DNA from: Candidatus Yonathbacteria bacterium
GTDB taxonomy: Bacteria > Patescibacteriota > Minisyncoccia > Phycocordibacterales > UBA1550
Assembly (NCBI GenBank): GCA_003483855.1
Contig: DMXP01000002.1
Location: 56,851 to 112,713 of the forward strand
Direction of reading: 5' to 3'
Length of the DNA: 55,863 bases
Shown here one piece after another: positions 2,617-21,553 of this stretch. The position numbers and the translations under genes are program-made. The first letter of the stretch is position 1. Each line of letters begins with the position of its first letter. A model generated the notes under the pieces. It worked only from the letters and a program-made list of their open reading frames with translations, ran no database searches and had not been told where the DNA came from.

Positions 2617-3525
2617 CTATGAAACAAGTGACTGAATAGGAACCTCCAATTTTGCGAATGCGGAATTTTTGTGCACGTTGCCTTCTTCGTCTATGAGAAA
2701 GTAGGGAAGCCCGCTTTGCTCTAGGCGAGCGGTGGCTTGTATCGGTCCGAGGAGTATCGCGAGCGATGCTTCTGTATCGGCGCGCTCGCATGTTTCCGCT
2801 ATTACTGTCGCGCTTACCACGCCGTTTGCAGGACATTTATTTTTCATATTCACTAGATGGTGCCATTTTTTGCCGTCCTGCTCGCCTTTTGTTTGGTACA
2901 CGCCAGATGTCGCTATACCAGCGTTTTTTAGCCCCACAGCAGACACAATGGCGTCTGGATTGTTCGGAGCCTGCACCGCGATATTCCATGCCGAACCCCC
3001 ATCGTAGTCCCCTTTTGTTAAAATATCCCCGCCGACATTTATCATAAATCCTGGCACTTTTTCTAGTGCCTTTCCAGCAGAGTCTATCGCCATTCCTTTT
3101 ATAATGCACGCAGGTTCCAAAATTTGCCCAGGCGCGAGACGGATGAGAAGCTCGCGTTCATTGAAAGCAAGGTCGCGATATGTGGGAGAGTTTGCAGGCG
3201 AAATAAAATTTTCTGGTAGCCCGTAACCATACGATGCTAGAATACCACCGACAGATGGGTCAAATGCGCCATCTGTTTCCGCAGATAGGGCTACGCATTT
3301 TTTGATAACCTGAAAAAGTTCCACGCCAACTTTGTGCCATGCGCCATTACTCATATTTAGAGCCATAAGCTCGCTATCTGGTTCGAAGCGACTAAAGCGA
3401 AGATCGTATTCATTGAATACAATCTCGGCTTTTTTAACTGCTTCGCCTGCTTCTTTTTTTGGTAATCCAACAATCGTGATATGAATTGGAATACCCATTG
3501 AGTGAAAAACGTAGTGTTCGGTCAT
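2617..3525 (-). CDS. apbE: FAD:protein FMN transferase (ApbE family), no N-terminal signal peptide
   Basis: SMG start motif, RFSRF..DSEL, GAFDPSVG, IIKG.AID, NVGGDI, ATSG, HHL, SATV. Confidence 0.9.
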   Translation of the reverse strand: MTEHYVFHSMGIPIHITIVGLPKKEAGEAVKKAEIVFNEYDLRFSRFEPDSELMALNMSNGAWHKVGVELFQVIKKCVALSAETDGAFDPSVGGILASYGYGLPENFISPANSPTYRDLAFNERELLIRLAPGQILEPACIIKGMAIDSAGKALEKVPGFMINVGGDILTKGDYDGGSAWNIAVQAPNNPDAIVSAVGLKNAGIATSGVYQTKGEQDGKKWHHLVNMKNKCPANGVVSATVIAETCERADTEASLAILLGPIQATARLEQSGLPYFLIDEEGNVHKNSAFAKLEVPIQSLVS

Positions 3526-3536
3526 ATAGTAAAATT

Positions 3537-4097
3537 TTAATCATCGTCATGATCGTCATCCCATTCATCATCATCATGATCGTTACCTTTTCGGTATTTT
3601 TTAGGTACTGCAGGTTTTGCAGTTGATGTGGTTATTGCGCTTCCAATATTTGCAGTTATTGATTGTCCTTCTGTATTTGCCTTAGCAATAGCGCTTTCCA
3701 GTGAGGATTTGAAGGCGATACTTGTATACGTTGCGCCTGATACCCCCTGTATATTTGCTGAACCTGCCCTAAGTGCTTGCTCAACTAAAAATGGCTCAGC
3801 ATAAACAGATGGGGGAGAATCGGGGATTGATGGCATATTTGTAGCAATAATTTTCCCATCCTTAACAGTAATAGAAGCAACCGCGTTGCCCCACGGGGTT
3901 TGGTATGCTTTTCCAGTAATGGTCGTCGCAGAGGATAGAACAGACGGAGATAGAGGAGCTGTTCCTTCTGGCGTTGTCGCTGTTGCAAGTACCCCCTCCT
4001 TCTTAATACGAGTAATGCCGGCAAATACTAAAACAACTGAAACCGCTGTAAAGAAGATAACGAAAAACTTTTGAAGAATTTTTGATAAAGAGGTCAT
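3537..4097 (-). CDS. Membrane-anchored FMN-binding (flavinylation substrate) protein with acidic His/Asp tail
   Basis: N-terminal TM helix; TPWGNAVASITVKDGKI and GVSGATYTS ([S/T]GA[S/T] motif); ends NDHDDDEWDDDHDDD. Confidence 0.85.
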   Translation of the reverse strand: MTSLSKILQKFFVIFFTAVSVVLVFAGITRIKKEGVLATATTPEGTAPLSPSVLSSATTITGKAYQTPWGNAVASITVKDGKIIATNMPSIPDSPPSVYAEPFLVEQALRAGSANIQGVSGATYTSIAFKSSLESAIAKANTEGQSITANIGSAITTSTAKPAVPKKYRKGNDHDDDEWDDDHDDD

Positions 4098-4099
4098 AA

Positions 4100-4570
4100 T
4101 TATACTGCTTCAAATATCTCGCGAACTTTAGAGCGAATAAAGAACCACCAACCAAGAAGAAGCACCAACTCTCCTAGATAAAGAGCTACGAGCGCAAATG
4201 CGAAACTCGTTACCTCTCTTTGAATAGCTGTAGTGGATTTCATTAGCACAGCTTGTTTATCAATGTCAGCGTAAGCGAGGTATCTTTCATCGCCAATTGA
4301 GGTTTCGTAAAACCCGACATGTGCGCTCGATTGGGTACGAAATAACAAAATATCTTCCGGTAGCGTAACCGTTTGTTCAGTGGCTGTTGCATCTGGTGAT
4401 GGAAGAGACTCACTATATCTTAGAAGCTCATCATGTAGTTCGTTGTTTTCTATCCAGTTAAGAGCTCCTAATGTAACGCCATTTAATGCAAGGAGCGCAA
4501 AAAGAACCGCAATACCATAATTGCGCACTGCCCCTAGCCCTCTATACACAGCTATTTCGTTTGATTCCAT
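4100..4570 (-). CDS. 2-TM membrane protein with an ~85-aa extracytoplasmic loop (orphan sensor-like domain)
   Basis: Two hydrophobic segments flank a soluble loop; ends about 10 aa after TM2 with no signalling domain. Confidence 0.65.
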   Translation of the reverse strand: MESNEIAVYRGLGAVRNYGIAVLFALLALNGVTLGALNWIENNELHDELLRYSESLPSPDATATEQTVTLPEDILLFRTQSSAHVGFYETSIGDERYLAYADIDKQAVLMKSTTAIQREVTSFAFALVALYLGELVLLLGWWFFIRSKVREIFEAV

Positions 4571-4594
4571 AATGTTTTATTATTATCTCTAAAT

Positions 4595-4671
4595 TATACC
4601 CCCACACCTACTTTTTTCATAGTCAGTTCTGTTGTTGAATACAAAAAAGTGAAAGTAGGTGTGGGGGTATA
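4595..4671. repeat. 20-bp perfect inverted repeat with 37-nt spacer inside the operon
   Basis: TATACCCCCACACCTACTTT (4595-4614) and AAAGTAGGTGTGGGGGTATA (4652-4671). Confidence 0.9.
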
Positions 4672-4675
4672 CTCC

Positions 4676-5404
4676 CTAGCCAAACTTTTGTACAAATACT
4701 TGTTTCTTAGGCATTCCAATATCCTCAAGAGCGGAGAGTACGCCAAGTGTCATTGGAGGAATACCGCAAATATAAATATCGCTCTCTTTTATTGATTCCG
4801 CGTTTTTTGGAACATAGTCGGTTACGTATCCACGAGCCCCTCTCCACGACGGGTCTCCGTTTGAAAGAACAGGGTTAAATGTAACGAGTCCTGGATACTT
4901 TTGAGCAAGATCCTCAAATTCATTTTTGAAAGCGATGTCCGATTCTTTTGGAGAGCCAAGGTAGATGGTTGAATGCGCGCCCTCTTTGATAGCTTCCTCA
5001 AGCATCATTCTAAAAGGCGCGATACCAGTAGATGTGGCAAAGAATACTTTTGGTCTGCCTGTGCCAGAGCGGTACGGAAAATCATCAAAGGGTCCGTAAA
5101 AAAGCACTTTTGTTCCAACTGAAGTGTCGCGAAAGAATCGCGCCCCGCATCCACCTCCAGAAAAACTTACTAATAGTGTGAATGAATGATCGTCGCTTTT
5201 TGCGGTGGAGTAGCATCGTGGTACGCAGTCCCATGTGAGAGCCGTAACATACGACCCAAGGGGGAATGGCGCCTTTATGTTTTCTGGAAGGCCGATTCGG
5301 ACTCGTTGAATACGCGAACCAATGCGCTCGCTTTCAATGATTGCGCCAGTGAAGTGATGCGCTTCTGTGAACCATTTGCGAACGACGCGAGGAATAATTT
5401 TCAT
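4676..5404 (-). CDS. FAD/NAD(P)-binding oxidoreductase, ferredoxin-NADP reductase (FNR/Fre) superfamily
   Basis: RCYS (RxYS FAD motif), GGCGARFF, GPF, ATSTGIAPF, YICGIPPM, terminal KFG. Confidence 0.85.
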   Translation of the reverse strand: MKIIPRVVRKWFTEAHHFTGAIIESERIGSRIQRVRIGLPENIKAPFPLGSYVTALTWDCVPRCYSTAKSDDHSFTLLVSFSGGGCGARFFRDTSVGTKVLFYGPFDDFPYRSGTGRPKVFFATSTGIAPFRMMLEEAIKEGAHSTIYLGSPKESDIAFKNEFEDLAQKYPGLVTFNPVLSNGDPSWRGARGYVTDYVPKNAESIKESDIYICGIPPMTLGVLSALEDIGMPKKQVFVQKFG

Positions 5405-16432: not shown

Positions 16433-16518
16433 GTGATATAGTGGGAGAAACAGAATACGAGTTTTGAATTGTGTCTGTATTTATTCTACATTCTATATTC
16501 CATATTCAACCCCACACC

Positions 16519-17550
16519 ATGTCCAACCTCGCCCTCTACACCAAATATCGCCCAAAATCCTTTGAAGAGGTAATAGGGCAGGAGCAGGTCATTAAAACAC
16601 TAGAGGGGGCTATCAAGGCTGGCAATATTGGGCATGCGTACCTTTTTTCAGGTTCTCGCGGTACTGGCAAAACCTCCATCGCGCGTATTTTTGCGCGAGC
16701 TATCGGCGCGCACGATGATGATATTTATGAAATAGATGCTGCATCAAATCGCGGTATTGATGACATTCGCGCGCTTCGCGACGCTGTGCATACTGTACCG
16801 ATGCACTCTAAATACAAAGTGTACATAATAGATGAGGCGCATATGCTGTCGCGAGAGGCATTTCCAGCGCTCCTGAAAACGTTAGAGGAGCCTCCAAAGC
16901 ATGTCGTGTTTATTCTCGCCACTACAGATGAAGAAAAGATTCCTGAAACTATTGTGTCTCGTTGTCAGAGTTTCCGTTTTGATAAACCTTCGCAAACAAC
17001 ATTAAAAACTCTTGTTGAAACTGTTTCAAAAAAAGAAGGTTACTCGCTAGAACCCGCATCGGCCGACCTCATTGCACTTTTAGGCGACGGGTCATTTCGT
17101 GACACGCTTGGGATTTTACAAAAAGTTATTGCATCGTCTTCTGATAAAAAGATTTCAGCGCAAGAAGTGGAGGCGGTTACTGGCGCGCCGGACAGCCGTT
17201 TGGTGAACTCATTTCTAAAGGCGATTGTAGCGCGTGATGTAGAAGCGGGATTAACCGCTTTACAAAGTGCCGTAGAACGCGGAGTGGAAGAAAGGGTGTT
17301 CCTTGATTTACTTCTTCGCAAGATGCGCGCAGTAATGATGTTTCGTTTCGTTGAGAATTCGCGAAAAGAAATGTCGGAAAATTTTCCTGCGGAAGATATA
17401 GCGCTCATAGAAGACCTCGCAAAAAACTCAATTCAAACACTAACTTCAAAAGAGCTCGCGGAAGTTTTGAAAGCGTACGAAAGCGTGCGAGTAGCAGTCG
17501 TGCCAGGACTCGCATTGGAAATCACACTCTTGCGTATCTGTGGCAAATAA
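16519..17550 (+). CDS. dnaX: DNA polymerase III gamma/tau subunit (short, gamma-like)
   Basis: LYTKYRPKSF, GSRGTGKTS, EIDAASNRGIDDIR, IIDEAHML, SRCQ, GSFRD. Confidence 0.93.
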   Translation: MSNLALYTKYRPKSFEEVIGQEQVIKTLEGAIKAGNIGHAYLFSGSRGTGKTSIARIFARAIGAHDDDIYEIDAASNRGIDDIRALRDAVHTVPMHSKYKVYIIDEAHMLSREAFPALLKTLEEPPKHVVFILATTDEEKIPETIVSRCQSFRFDKPSQTTLKTLVETVSKKEGYSLEPASADLIALLGDGSFRDTLGILQKVIASSSDKKISAQEVEAVTGAPDSRLVNSFLKAIVARDVEAGLTALQSAVERGVEERVFLDLLLRKMRAVMMFRFVENSRKEMSENFPAEDIALIEDLAKNSIQTLTSKELAEVLKAYESVRVAVVPGLALEITLLRICGK

Positions 17551-17609
17551 GGCGTTGCCGAATCATGCCTTTTGGTGTATTGTGCGTCATTATAAGTAGT
17601 AAATTGATC

Positions 17610-17630
17610 AGATCGTCTAATAGTATGGAT
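17610..17630 (+). repeat. Degenerate copy of the tRNA-Gln D-arm region upstream of the tRNA
   Basis: AGATCGTCTAATAGTA (17610-17625) vs AGATCGTCTAATGGTA (17701-17716), 15/16. Confidence 0.75.
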
Positions 17631-17696
17631 AATGAAACAGTGTGTAAACACTGTTTCATCCTGTCCGAAGGAATCGGTGTTGTTTGTATTCATTGC

Positions 17697-17767
17697 TGGG
17701 AGATCGTCTAATGGTAGGACAGCGGCCTTTGAAGCCGTCAATCTTGGTTCGATTCCAAGCCTCCCAG
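17697..17767 (+). tRNA. tRNA-Gln (anticodon UUG), CCA not encoded
   Basis: TGGGAGA-TC-GTCTAATGGTAGGAC-A-GCGGC-CTTTGAA-GCCGT-CAAT-CTTGG-TTCGATT-CCAAG-CCTCCCA-G cloverleaf. Confidence 0.95.
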
Positions 17768-17795
17768 CAATGAATATAAACCACCGATAGGGTGC

Positions 17796-17927
17796 CCTTT
17801 GAAGCCCGAATTTAAGTTTTTTACAAGCGAAGCGCTCCTTTATAAAAAAGCTGAAATTCGCGTCGCTGTGTTTCCCCTAGAAACACAAGGCGTGAACTAA
17901 TCTTGGTTCGATTCCAAGCCTCACAGC
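17796..17927 (+). repeat. Degenerate copy of the tRNA-Gln 3' half with a 92-nt hairpin-rich insert
   Basis: CCTTTGAAGCC (17796-17806) = 17726-17736; AATCTTGGTTCGATTCCAAGCCTCACAGC (17899-17927) = 17740-17768 at 28/29. Confidence 0.85.
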
Positions 17928-17969
17928 TTTGAGCGTGAACCGCTGTTCATATTTGCTATACTTAAGTAT

Positions 17970-18608
17970 ATGAACAAACGCCTTATCCTTTTCCTCTGCA
18001 TCGCAATAATAATTGCATTTCTATTTTGGTATTCAAGCGTTCTTCAGAGCGCGTTTTATACTATCGCGGGATACCTAAATACGCTCGCCGTAGAAAATGA
18101 GCTTCTCGCGATTTTTGTGTTTGTTCTAACGTCAGCTCTTGCCGCGCTTATCAGCCCTCTAACAAACATCCCACTTGTACCAATCGCGACATTAATTTGG
18201 GGGCCTATACCTACTATAATTTTTTTGCTCGCTGGATGGCTCATTGGCGACATCATTGCGTATCTCATTGGGCGCTACTATGGCTACAAGGTTGTTTCTT
18301 ATTTCGTATCAAAAGAAAAAGTTGATGATTGGAGCAGTATGGTCAAAAAACACACAACTTTTTCCACCGCTTTGCTTTTACGCGTCGCTCTTCCTGCCGA
18401 GCTTGGGTACGCGTTTGGCATCATTCGTTATCCGTTGAATTTATACATATTTATTACATTTCTCGCAGAGTTGCCGTTTGCTATTATTTCCACATATGCG
18501 AGCGAGGCAGTATTGCTTGGCGACGCTATGAAATTCTTTGGGCTCATAGGAATATTGTTTGTGGTCATCATTGTAGCGTTCCGCACGACACATTCGGATT
18601 TGGTATAA
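17970..18608 (+). CDS. VTT/DedA (TVP38/TMEM64-like) membrane protein
   Basis: Multi-TM; GDIIAYLIGRYYG and LLLRVALP..L.Y.FG pattern. Confidence 0.8.
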   Translation: MNKRLILFLCIAIIIAFLFWYSSVLQSAFYTIAGYLNTLAVENELLAIFVFVLTSALAALISPLTNIPLVPIATLIWGPIPTIIFLLAGWLIGDIIAYLIGRYYGYKVVSYFVSKEKVDDWSSMVKKHTTFSTALLLRVALPAELGYAFGIIRYPLNLYIFITFLAELPFAIISTYASEAVLLGDAMKFFGLIGILFVVIIVAFRTTHSDLV

Positions 18609-18615
18609 TTGGCGT

Positions 18616-18756
18616 ATGGACGCGCCTATCTCCCTAAAAAACTCAAATTCTAAGGTCATTTTGCACATAGACGGCGATGCGTTTTTTGTGGGTGTTGAAT
18701 GCGCAAAAAATCCTAAGTTAAAAGGTTTACCTGTGGTGACTGGAGAGGAGCGTTAA
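18616..18756 (+). pseudogene. dinB: Truncated 5' fragment (46 aa) of a Y-family polymerase allele
   Basis: MDAPISLKNSNS-KVILHIDGDAFFVGVECAKNPKLKGLPVVTGEER-stop; 34 codons protein-identical to the N-terminus of 20309-21553. Confidence 0.9.
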
Positions 18757-18797: not shown

Positions 18798-19359
18798 CCC
18801 TGTGGTCTCTGCCACAGGGACCTTGTAGGAAAGTCAGAAAACCCTCGGTTTTCTGATGTATACTGTGCCAATGACTCCACAAAAAGGTTACCACTGTGCA
18901 TACGATACCCACTACCACATCGTGTTTCCCGTAAAGTATCGTAAGGCACTGCTCTCCGACGACGTAACGAAAACCATTAAGGAAATTTCAAAAGGACTTG
19001 AAGAACGCTACGATTTAACCATTGAGCAAGTAGGATGCGACAGTGACCACATACACATGTTGGTTTCCATTCATCCAAAATATTCAATTGGTCAATTCGT
19101 ACGTCTCTACAAAAGCATCACCGCGAAGCAAGTCTTTTTGAAATTTCCTGAGGTAAAGAAAGACCTCTGGGGTGGAGAATTCTGGACAGATGGTTACTAT
19201 GTTGCAACCGTCGGAGAGAAGGCGAACTGGTCTATCGTAGAACGATACGTAAAGAATCAGGGGAAACACGATGAAAAGCCTCCCACACTATGGTAGACTG
19301 TTACTACTAACGAACTGCGTCATGGGCCCGGGTCATACCCTGTGGTCTCTGCCACAGGG
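18798..19359 (+). mobile_element. IS200/IS605-family element, tnpA only, with identical subterminal hairpins
   Basis: CCCTGTGG-TCTCTG-CCACAGGG at 18798-18819 and 19338-19359 flanks a Y1 transposase; exact ends lie a short, undetermined distance outside the hairpins. Confidence 0.88.
18871..19296 (+). CDS. tnpA: IS200/IS605 Y1 (HUH) transposase
   Basis: HYHIVFPVKYR, DHIHML (HUH), LWGGEFWTDGYYVATVG, catalytic Y in RYVKNQ. Confidence 0.95.
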   Translation: MTPQKGYHCAYDTHYHIVFPVKYRKALLSDDVTKTIKEISKGLEERYDLTIEQVGCDSDHIHMLVSIHPKYSIGQFVRLYKSITAKQVFLKFPEVKKDLWGGEFWTDGYYVATVGEKANWSIVERYVKNQGKHDEKPPTLW

Positions 19360-19383
19360 TTGTTGATTAGCCTAATAAACAAA

Positions 19384-20308: not shown

Positions 20309-21553
20309 ATGAGCCCACAGACCACAAAAAATAAGGTCATTTTGCACATAGACGGTGATGCTTTTTTTGTGGGTGTGGAATGCGCAAAAAATCCTAAACT
20401 AAAGGGTTTGCCAGTAGTGACTGGCGAAGAGCGGGGAATTGTTTCAGCTCTTTCGTACGAAGCAAAGGCGCTTGGCGTTGTGCGTGGTATGTCGATATTT
20501 AAAATTAAAAAAGAATTCCCAAATGTCGTCGTCCTTCCGGGCGACTACAAATCGTACGTAGAGTATTCCAGCAAGATGTTTGAAATCGTAAACAGATACG
20601 CGTATGGCGTGGAGGAGTACAGCATTGACGAATGTTTTGCCGATGTTACTGGTTTGGATAGAACTCTCAAAAAAACTTACAGAGAAATTGCTGAAAAAAT
20701 TAAAAAGGAAATCGGTGACGAGCTCGGGATCTCGGTGTCCATTGGTCTCGCGCCAACAAAAGTTCTAGCGAAAGTTGCATCCAACTGGGTGAAGCCAAAT
20801 GGTCTGACAATAATTGACGCAAACACCGCAGGAGATTTTCTCGCCAAAGTGCCTATCGGAAAAGTGTGGGGGATAGGACCGAGAACTGCGGAGGTACTAA
20901 TACGCCGAGGCGCAAAAACAGCGCTTGATTTTCGCGAGAAGGATCTCCTGTGGGTAAAAAAGTGCCTGTCAAAACCTTATGTGGCAATTTGGCTGGAGCT
21001 AAACAGCGTTTTGGTTATGGGTGTGAACACAGAAGTAAAGAGCACATACTCCTCCATTCAAAAAACGCGAACGTTTCACCCTACGACAAATGATAAAGTT
21101 TTTCTGTGGTCGCAGATTTCAAAACACATAGAAGACGCGTGCCGAAAGGCGCGATATTACGAATTAACTCCAAAGAAAATTTCTATTTTTCTCAAGACAA
21201 ATGATTTCAAAATAGCATCTGCTTCAACCACGCTTCCATCGCCATCAAACTCGCCAGAAATATCTCTTTCACTCGCGCGCGAGCTGTTTAAAAAAATTCA
21301 CGCAAAGGGTATTTTGTACAGAACTGCAGGCGTAACACTGGAAGCCCTCACTGCCGATTTTACGCCTCATGCAGACTTGTTTGGAGAAACAGCAAAGGGT
21401 GACAAATTTGACCTCATACACAAGCAGATTGATTTTTTGGAGAACAAACTTGGCAAACGCGTAATTTACCTTGGTTCAACCAAGCAGGCTCTTGACCACA
21501 AAGAACTCGGTACAGATGCCGACGAGCTTGACCGCGATTTGCTGTTTTTGTGA
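20309..21553 (+). CDS. dinB: Y-family DNA polymerase (Pol IV/UmuC-like)
   Basis: HIDGDAFF, SALSYEAK, YSIDE catalytic motif, K.LAKVAS, VWGIGP, little-finger domain. Confidence 0.92.
   Translation: MSPQTTKNKVILHIDGDAFFVGVECAKNPKLKGLPVVTGEERGIVSALSYEAKALGVVRGMSIFKIKKEFPNVVVLPGDYKSYVEYSSKMFEIVNRYAYGVEEYSIDECFADVTGLDRTLKKTYREIAEKIKKEIGDELGISVSIGLAPTKVLAKVASNWVKPNGLTIIDANTAGDFLAKVPIGKVWGIGPRTAEVLIRRGAKTALDFREKDLLWVKKCLSKPYVAIWLELNSVLVMGVNTEVKSTYSSIQKTRTFHPTTNDKVFLWSQISKHIEDACRKARYYELTPKKISIFLKTNDFKIASASTTLPSPSNSPEISLSLARELFKKIHAKGILYRTAGVTLEALTADFTPHADLFGETAKGDKFDLIHKQIDFLENKLGKRVIYLGSTKQALDHKELGTDADELDRDLLFL

Follow-up and report, generated by a model that had tools for sequence, protein, structure and literature searches.

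Genomic islands and prophages that reside in tRNA genes are bordered by attL and attR sites carrying a duplicated segment of the tRNA, and their integrase-less derivatives constitute cis-mobilizable elements. The Correia-type miniature inverted-repeat elements of Neisseria form a stem in the transcript that is cut by RNase III. In bacterial pre-rRNA, helices formed between leader and trailer are processed by RNase III (PMC11404451, PMC10250234), and the disrupted tRNA genes of archaea and red algae comprise non-canonical introns as well as split and permuted tRNAs (PMC4033280, PMC3978253, PMC4390854). Here, we analyzed a 55,863-nucleotide stretch of the chromosome of a Candidatus Yonathbacteria bacterium (Patescibacteria), a groundwater member of the candidate phyla radiation (CPR); this whole stretch is referred to as the window. 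Downstream of its dnaX gene, an intact tRNA-Gln(UUG) gene, flanked by a long leader-trailer helix, is nested within the dispersed remains of another tRNA-Gln gene. We put at about even the chance that a small non-autonomous cassette entered the D-loop of the resident tRNA-Gln gene with its own full copy and that the resident copy then decayed. The cassette looks like a previously undescribed small gene-replacing insert, and a limited search of the searchable literature yielded no account of nested tRNA genes from this group of bacteria.

The locus shares several features with tRNA-gene islands. DNA lies inside a tRNA gene, the tRNA sequence of the insert keeps the function while the displaced old piece remains alongside, a direct repeat of the tRNA (TA/TAGG) stands at both ends, and the locus is an integration hotspot in relatives; as in cis-mobilizable elements, the insert has no recombinase of its own. 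However, unlike in these islands, the non-tRNA part measures only ~45-140 nt, the insert provides a whole tRNA including its 5' end and not just a displaced 3' part, and the site is in the D-loop instead of the anticodon loop, the T-loop, or the 3' end. Furthermore, both 5' and 3' relics are left, and the new tRNA sits within a covarying helix. The initial annotation of this DNA had argued that an attL/attR duplication alone is insufficient to explain the locus, and rightly so.

The resemblance to Correia elements lies in the small size and non-coding nature of the insert, in a possible TA repeat at the junctions, and in inverted repeats forming a stem in the transcript, but the cassette has a tRNA as cargo and a single target gene, occurs once in 55.8 kb, and implicates no transposase family. 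When its ends were examined as those of a miniature inverted-repeat transposable element (MITE), the right repeat was found at the junction and the left one 11-45 nt inside it, except in one related locus (L097), with a junction repeat of 2-5 nt. Similarly to the pre-rRNA helices, the flanks enclose a mature RNA, are kept by covariation and not by sequence, and would make a plausible RNase III substrate; unlike those helices, they enclose a single tRNA, are continuous with its acceptor stem, and occur in nested loci only. With the disrupted tRNA genes, the locus has in common an unusual interruption that includes the D-arm region and long complementary flanks, and archaeal tRNA introns have been argued to be mobile. 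In contrast to those genes, the host is a bacterium, no bulge-helix-bulge is present, the interrupted copy is decaying, and function comes from a second copy inside. Group I introns in bacterial tRNA genes are likewise structured RNA inserts in a tRNA gene, but here there is no match to the Rfam model, the insert lies outside the anticodon loop, and no tRNA would be rebuilt by joining the exons.

The intact inner tRNA-Gln(UUG) gene (17697-17767, + strand; CCA not encoded) was placed by ARAGORN at 17697-17767/8 and was matched by the Rfam tRNA model (RF00005) with 58.6 bits against a gathering threshold of 29. Its sequence is identical (71/71) to that of the only tRNA-Gln gene downstream of dnaX in four relatives (L006, L009, L011, and L093; related loci are given L numbers throughout). 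The leader and trailer of this gene pair with each other. The 5' strand of the helix (17673-17696, + strand) provides 7 bp, a TT bulge, and 15 bp, and its 3' strand (17767-17788, + strand) starts at the discriminator G. The 15-bp part, which includes one G-U pair, joins 17682-17696 to 17767-17781, the TT at 17680-81 is bulged, and the outer 7 bp join 17673-17679 to 17782-17788. The helix extends the acceptor stem, with C17696 pairing to the discriminator G17767, as found by direct reading and in the minimum free energy and centroid folds. A 131-nt segment folded at -58 kcal/mol, compared to -33.9 +/- 3.5 for shuffled sequences (z = -6.9; 0/200), and the fold of a 391-nt region reached -140 kcal/mol (z = -7.7 compared to shuffles).

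Outside this helix, three fragments of a second tRNA-Gln gene stand in tRNA order on the + strand. The 5' relic (17604-17629) consists of the leader motif AAATTGA and of D-arm positions ~5-24, the 5' acceptor strand being deleted; its D-arm copy (17610-17625) is identical to the inner D-arm at 15/16 positions (BLAST E = 0.006, with a 2-kb subject as for the other two copies). The middle relic (17788-17806) comprises TAGG from the 3' side of the D-stem, a degenerate 5' strand of the anticodon stem, and the intact anticodon loop CCTTTGAAGCC, with an 11/11 match at 17796-17806 (E = 0.025). The 3' relic (17898-17927) retains the variable loop, the T-arm, and the acceptor 3' strand with the discriminator, and matches at 28/29 positions over 17899-17927 (E = 1e-10). 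It is followed on the + strand by the ancestral downstream flank (17928-17969), which aligns with L006 and runs up to the start of a gene for a DedA/VTT membrane protein. The sole open reading frame (ORF) between 17551 and 17969 is one of 52 aa (17632-17790) that reads through the tRNA, so that the region harbors no plausible coding ORF. The initial annotation had described the three copies with these positions and identities, the pairing of leader and trailer that includes the discriminator base (15 bp with one G-U, a 2-nt bulge, and 7 bp), and the promoter and hairpins treated below, and all were borne out.

For the ancestral position, the window was aligned with L006 (DnaX 97% identical, plain tRNA) and with L166 (93%). 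The best DnaX matches are metagenome-assembled genomes (MAGs) of Candidatus Yonathbacteria and Paceibacteria, and most relatives have a tRNA-Gln gene 45-80 nt downstream of dnaX, behind a conserved promoter motif. In the alignments, the D-arm fragment of the window follows the promoter and AAATTGA exactly at the position of the plain tRNA of L006, the 5' relic aligns with the outer 5' fragment of L166, and the flank starting with GAGCGTGAACCGCTGT after 17898-17927 is the one found after the last tRNA piece in L006. The outer pieces thus mark the ancestral gene, and we take all that lies between them to be inserted. The junction TAGG(T/G)TGCC is common to the window, L019, L092, and L096.

The promoter-like motif TTGCCG-N17-TATTGT (17555-17583, + strand), read from the sequence, precedes the whole unit. 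It matches 8/12 consensus positions and is therefore below the threshold of a simple promoter scan, which did not list it. The corresponding motif TTGCC...TTTTGGTGTATT(G/C)TG is found upstream of tRNA-Gln in L006, L007, L009, L013, L018-L020, L092, L093, and L095, in line with its conservation before tRNA-Gln in most relatives. Promoter scanning flagged another sequence in the window, TTGATC-N18-GATAAT at 17604-17633, whose -35 element derives from the ancestral leader and whose -10 element derives from a conserved GGATAAT at the left junction of the cassette. Counterparts are TTGATT-N17-GATAAT in L096b and TTGGGG-N16-GATAAT in L019. The left junction of the cassette may, as read from these motifs, create an internal promoter for the inner tRNA.

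Related loci were collected via DnaX and via spurious ORFs reading across the tRNA. Eight further nested tRNA-Gln loci were found (L019, L092, two in L096, L097, L189, L190, and L191), making nine with the window. In all of them, the 3' relic starts with TAGG (tRNA positions 19-23), and the surviving 5' relics end at positions 20-24 with ...GGTA, ...GGTAGG, or ...GGTAGGA. The old copy is always broken at one point of the D-loop, and each side of the break carries TA or a longer stretch up to TAGGA. L189 consists of three layers. The outermost is a 5' fragment with a left module of the window type; a middle tRNA, split at GGTA/TAGG, follows, and a second cassette inside this tRNA holds the intact one. 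The matched breakpoints in all loci, twice in L189, argue against independent deletions of spare copies, and the layering of L189 indicates repeated events at the same site. The relics of L019 are perfect (23, 19, and 19 nt at 100%, 61/61), those of the window are partly decayed, and the 3' relic of L097 is nearly gone, which suggests that the events differ in age.

Nested loci are patchily distributed over a tree of DnaX similarity. The window is nested and its 97% DnaX sister L006 is plain, while L019 and L096 are nested and their 90% sister L018 is plain. L189, L190, and L191 show ~45-50% DnaX identity to the window, yet they carry related cassettes; the outer layer of L189 has a window-type left module with a 28-nt hairpin slot, a C-GAA-G mini-hairpin, and the leader ATCG.TGTTGTTT. 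Additionally, an 18-nt perfect palindrome, CCTGCCTGCGCAGGCAGG, is shared by L097 (4207-4224) and L191 (1920-1937), where it follows G10 of the outer fragment; among 191 loci and the window, it is found only in these two, whose DnaX proteins are ~50% identical. The cassettes of L096a and L019 differ more than those of the window and L019, though DnaX of L096a and L019 are 89% identical. On these sequence comparisons, the distribution is better explained by turnover and spread than by a single ancient rearrangement that became fixed, and the patchiness could also come from frequent precise loss through recombination between inner gene and relic.

The leader-trailer helix was compared among the window, L019, L092, and L096a, aligned without gaps. 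In these four sequences, 9/22 pairs changed on both sides while 97% of the cells stayed paired; 0/500 shuffles reached the observed values, and slid controls were only 34-49% paired. One-sided changes led to G-U on the + strand and no A-C was seen, which suggests that pairing is kept in the transcript or in single-stranded DNA of the + strand. L096a retains the layout of 15-17 bp, TT bulge, and 5-7 bp with a different outer-helix sequence, and direct reading of L189 against L190 revealed a C-G to G-C and a C-G to T-A change. As judged from these substitutions, the helix is under selection as a structure, probably in RNA. We also surveyed pairing in 61 distinct tRNA loci in all DNA fetched, comprising 8 nested tRNA-Gln loci that were scored and 53 non-nested loci. 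Leader and trailer paired at 9-18 positions in the former and at ≤6 in the latter, which include the tRNA-Glu of the window. Since long pairing is confined to the nested loci, the helix is tied to nesting and not to the tRNAs of the organism generally. The initial annotation had looked to covariation in relatives and to the other tRNAs for a verdict on the structure.

Besides the helix, the insert harbors several hairpins. Hairpin 1 (17632-17659, + strand) is a 12-bp perfect stem with a GTAA loop, and a 28-nt hairpin occupies the same slot in five cassettes (the window, L019, L189, and the two of L096); this module is absent in L092 and L097. Among the five sequences, which were picked as hairpins at that position, 8/11 pairs changed on both sides with 100% Watson-Crick pairing and no G-U. 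The adjacent mini-hairpin TCC-GAA-GGA (17664-17672, + strand) is conserved in L019 and L096b, while in L189 direct reading gives TGC-GAA-GCA, with the middle pair swapped; C-GAA-G mini-hairpins recur in every module. Module Y (17807-17897, + strand) splits the relic between tRNA positions ~41 and ~44 and contains a 17-bp A/U-rich hairpin around the mini-hairpin AGCGAAGCG (17807-17860), then a hairpin at 17861-17892 and TGAAC. It shows four covarying pairs and one invariant U-G pair. Homologues of module Y directly follow the outer 5' fragment in L007/L166, L008, and L092, and because module Y stands elsewhere in the window than in L007, L008, and L092, it is a separable unit.

Several origins of these modules were considered and rejected. 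A family of repetitive extragenic palindromic or MITE repeats was dismissed because BLAST of 17551-17969 against the whole window detected no other copy of any module. Derivation of the palindromes from IS200/IS605 elements was not retained, as the end hairpins of the IS200-like element in the window, CCCTGTGGTCTCTGCCACAGGG, are unrelated to those of the cassette. By eye, module Y was likened to the P7/P8 region of the Azoarcus group I intron, and the comparison was dropped for want of Rfam backing. Five scans of viral contigs were performed with modules X (described below), Y, and Z and two tRNA-Gln patterns, and four of them gave no match. The Y-motif scan returned 16 matches, mostly in contigs of ~4-13 kb, which were judged unrelated and which we suspect to be small phages sharing the GCGAAGC hairpin.

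In the reading that we favor, a small, protein-less structured cassette would have split the resident tRNA-Gln(UUG) gene after GGTA (position 20/21) and brought in a complete tRNA-Gln at the tip of a long leader-trailer helix. Because the cassette would supply a working copy, the split resident copy would be dispensable; in this genome, it would have decayed to three fragments, one of them later split by module Y. The initial annotation had raised, as one of two options, a tRNA-capturing hairpin element inserted into its own parent gene, and this option is favored by the position of the outer fragments, by the eight further loci, and by their same D-loop break. The cassette would be non-autonomous and would still move or have moved until recently. 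A more far-reaching proposal is that it belongs to a protein-less, self-targeting, gene-overwriting family, in which a tiny tRNA-Gln cassette with its processing helix homes into any tRNA-Gln D-loop, including that of its own cargo, kills the resident, and becomes indispensable, thereby giving rise to Russian-doll loci and spreading across divergent Patescibacteria. This proposal is tentative, and we consider it more doubtful than probable.

Transcription of the whole unit probably starts at the conserved promoter that precedes the outer 5' fragment. In the transcript, the 7+15-bp helix stacked on the 7-bp acceptor stem would produce a stem of about 29 bp, which would lock the inner tRNA in its own fold despite the half-tRNA decoys. 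In a purely thermodynamic test, which gives such a role mild support, shuffling of the leader made the inner acceptor stem less probable in the prediction, with means of 0.23-0.97 across loci instead of ~1.0. The helix would then most likely act as an RNase III-type processing stem, to be cleaved or unwound before RNase P and RNase Z and before the addition of CCA. Bacterial RNase P has been reported to be hindered by pairing that lengthens the acceptor stem (PMC9433436), and since the leader is fully paired here, a prior cut or unwinding is plausible. RNase III cleavage before RNase P, which the initial annotation had suggested, would be a reasonable step on these grounds. Within the window, to which it was confined, a regular-expression search did not find the RNase III signature motif.

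A number of observations weigh against the insertion of a cassette. No inserting enzyme, no excised form, and no empty/filled polymorphism within one population was seen, and, unlike a multicopy element, the cassette is single-copy in the 55.8-kb window. The junction repeat has no clear length and may measure anything from TA to TAGGA (2 to 5 nt). The inner tRNA has each lineage's own sequence, and the outer fragments of L019 are identical to the inner gene at 61/61 positions, which favors within-lineage spread, gene conversion, or local duplication over transfer between lineages. Only nine nested loci were found, some of which share ancestry. Hairpin 1 is a perfect palindrome without G-U that DNA template switching could maintain without selection on RNA, and the effect of leader shuffling is small in L019 and L190.

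These points have to be set against what other explanations achieve. As the main alternative, the locus might be debris of ordinary site-specific recombination, left by islands with tRNA-Gln copies that were later trimmed to 5' and 3' stumps, the hairpin modules being leftover att-arm DNA and the helix a secondary development or the dyad symmetry of an attP site. We regard this as rather unlikely, even though recombination has clearly been at work around tRNA-Gln. L169 encodes a 492-aa large serine recombinase (CcrA/XisF-like; 3235-4713, - strand) whose gene end overlaps the 3' part of tRNA-Gln, and the same flank is found in L009, L011, L090, and L093. By sequence, this indicates that in these five plain-tRNA relatives an island integrated at, and now abuts, the tRNA 3' end. 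L166, L167, and L168 share an identical DnaX protein and have three different sequences from the tRNA 3' end, and in L168 two complete tRNA-Gln genes stand in tandem, the second flanked by the leader and trailer of L020. In L012, L170, and L172, the unit of promoter and tRNA-Gln has the opposite orientation with respect to dnaX, from which it is separated by a bidirectional terminator hairpin, and L006 carries a 198-nt insert with a 13-nt repeat of the tRNA 3' end on either side. The pattern of a 5' relic, an insert, and a full gene is moreover repeated at dinB, 0.7 kb downstream of the tRNA locus, which also speaks for debris. However, debris does not predict the matched TA/TAGG stump ends in the D-loop of every nested locus and of both L189 layers, and the recombinase island joins at the tRNA 3' end and not in the D-loop. 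The arms of the helix are separated by a whole tRNA and lie away from the crossover, and neither compensatory changes nor G-U without A-C exceptions would be expected of attP half-sites. Finally, no recombinase or integrase gene was found beside the nested loci L019, L092, L189, L190, and L191, and the window has only an unrelated IS200 ~1 kb downstream. A true intron, with the outer halves as exons that are, or until recently were, spliced in RNA after being brought together by the helix, and with the inner tRNA as a passenger in a terminal loop, would account for an insert within a gene and for a long helix rising from the break point. Moreover, the module of L096b has just a TTTA loop where the tRNA would be, L189 and L191 retain an almost full outer copy, and numerous introns have been reported in the rRNA genes of this group of bacteria (meeting report PMC10714607). 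Nevertheless, we find an intron improbable. No group I, other intron, or ribozyme family was detected at E ≤ 1 (E ≤ 10 in the window), there is no bulge-helix-bulge but a helix with a single 2-nt bulge on one strand, and an inner tRNA that is intact and identical to that of plain relatives is found in every case. Furthermore, no outer copy could be restored, since the window and L096b lack the acceptor 5' strand and L019 and L092 lack a pairing anticodon stem.

The other option of the initial annotation, a multibranch RNA of ~330 nt with an embedded tRNA, was not supported. That the region is one large structured noncoding RNA of ~330-390 nt acting as a unit is in keeping with the z score of the 391-nt fold (-7.7) and with the covariation of several helices, but much of the fold energy comes from the tRNA and from local hairpins. 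Its parts are separate and reordered in relatives, close relatives are plain, and the closest, L006, lacks the hairpin-1 module, module Y, and the helix (it has module X downstream of the tRNA). In Rfam, searched with its large noncoding RNA families such as GOLLD and with group I introns (RF00028), the window region (E ≤ 10) and nine related loci (E ≤ 1) matched only the tRNA model; the remaining matches were chance hits to microRNA hairpins and one small-RNA hairpin, far below gathering scores. The Rfam comparison suggested in the initial annotation thus recovered the inner gene and neither GOLLD nor any other large family, and we judge a single large RNA to be highly improbable. An assembly artefact, i.e., a chimeric join of tRNA-Gln reads, seems the least credible of all. 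Two Logan contigs from different sequencing runs (L003 and L004) both begin at window position 17805, at the boundary between the anticodon-loop relic and module Y, which would suit a branch in the assembly graph; their shared start hints at a co-occurring variant with a different left neighbor of module Y. In contrast, a 436-nt stretch spanning the whole region does not differ between an ENA and a JGI assembly record, and although the window may derive from one of them, the same sequence in two independently listed records makes the misassembly considered in the initial annotation unlikely. Differently sequenced nested versions also occur in MAGs and metagenomes from unrelated studies. On balance, the D-loop insertion of a cassette with its own tRNA-Gln remains our favored reading.

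Other features of the region concern its neighbors. The gene order is seryl-tRNA synthetase, an ORF that is FtsQ-like by the reading of its translation, Dus, dnaX (16471-17550, upstream of the tRNA region), the tRNA region, DedA/VTT (17970-18608, downstream of it), the IS200-like element, and dinB. A 10-nt inverted repeat around the intergenic region (17547-56 and 17977-86) is coding on both sides and is not conserved in L006, and it was judged to be due to chance. The IS200-like element (18800-19360) is delimited by the identical hairpins mentioned above, at 18800-18821 and 19339-19360, and contains a Y1 transposase gene (18856-19296; Pfam Y1_Tnp, E = 3e-37). At dinB, a 102-nt fragment of the 5' coding sequence (18651-18752) is 89% identical to 20332-20433 and lies upstream of an insert of ~1.6 kb, which comprises the IS200-like element and a 227-aa ORF without a family match; the full dinB gene follows.

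Module X was observed in L006 (4168-4365), L019 (~4530-4650), and L022 (~3990-4090). It consists of an inverted piece of the local T-loop, T-stem, and acceptor 3' strand (13-18 nt), ~65-110 nt of intervening sequence, and a direct 3' tRNA fragment, and the inverted piece matches each genome's own tRNA. The modules of L006 and L019 are clearly similar, and the intervening sequence of L022 looks different. In L006, a strong terminator hairpin stands before module X, which is thus probably outside the tRNA transcript. In some relatives, small genes of mobile appearance were also found between dnaX and tRNA-Gln: a RelB/YafQ toxin-antitoxin pair in L096 (2810-3385), and in L016 (4077-4781) and L094 (3593-4303) a helix-turn-helix protein of 234-236 aa without a known family. 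The latter was considered as a homing endonuclease, and this was rejected, as only weak helix-turn-helix matches were obtained (Pfam, NCBIfam, and PDB) and the tRNAs there are plain.

If the favored reading is correct, mobile DNA would be able to occupy an essential gene at no cost by replacing the whole gene instead of mending its cut end. The nested loci would also provide a natural bacterial tRNA that has to be released from a long double-stranded stalk, making it possible to test how a fully paired leader is handled jointly by RNase III, RNase P, and RNase Z in hosts with reduced RNA-processing toolkits. Since the usual tRNA-finding programs list the inner gene alone and overlook the relics, current CPR annotations give no sign of such loci.

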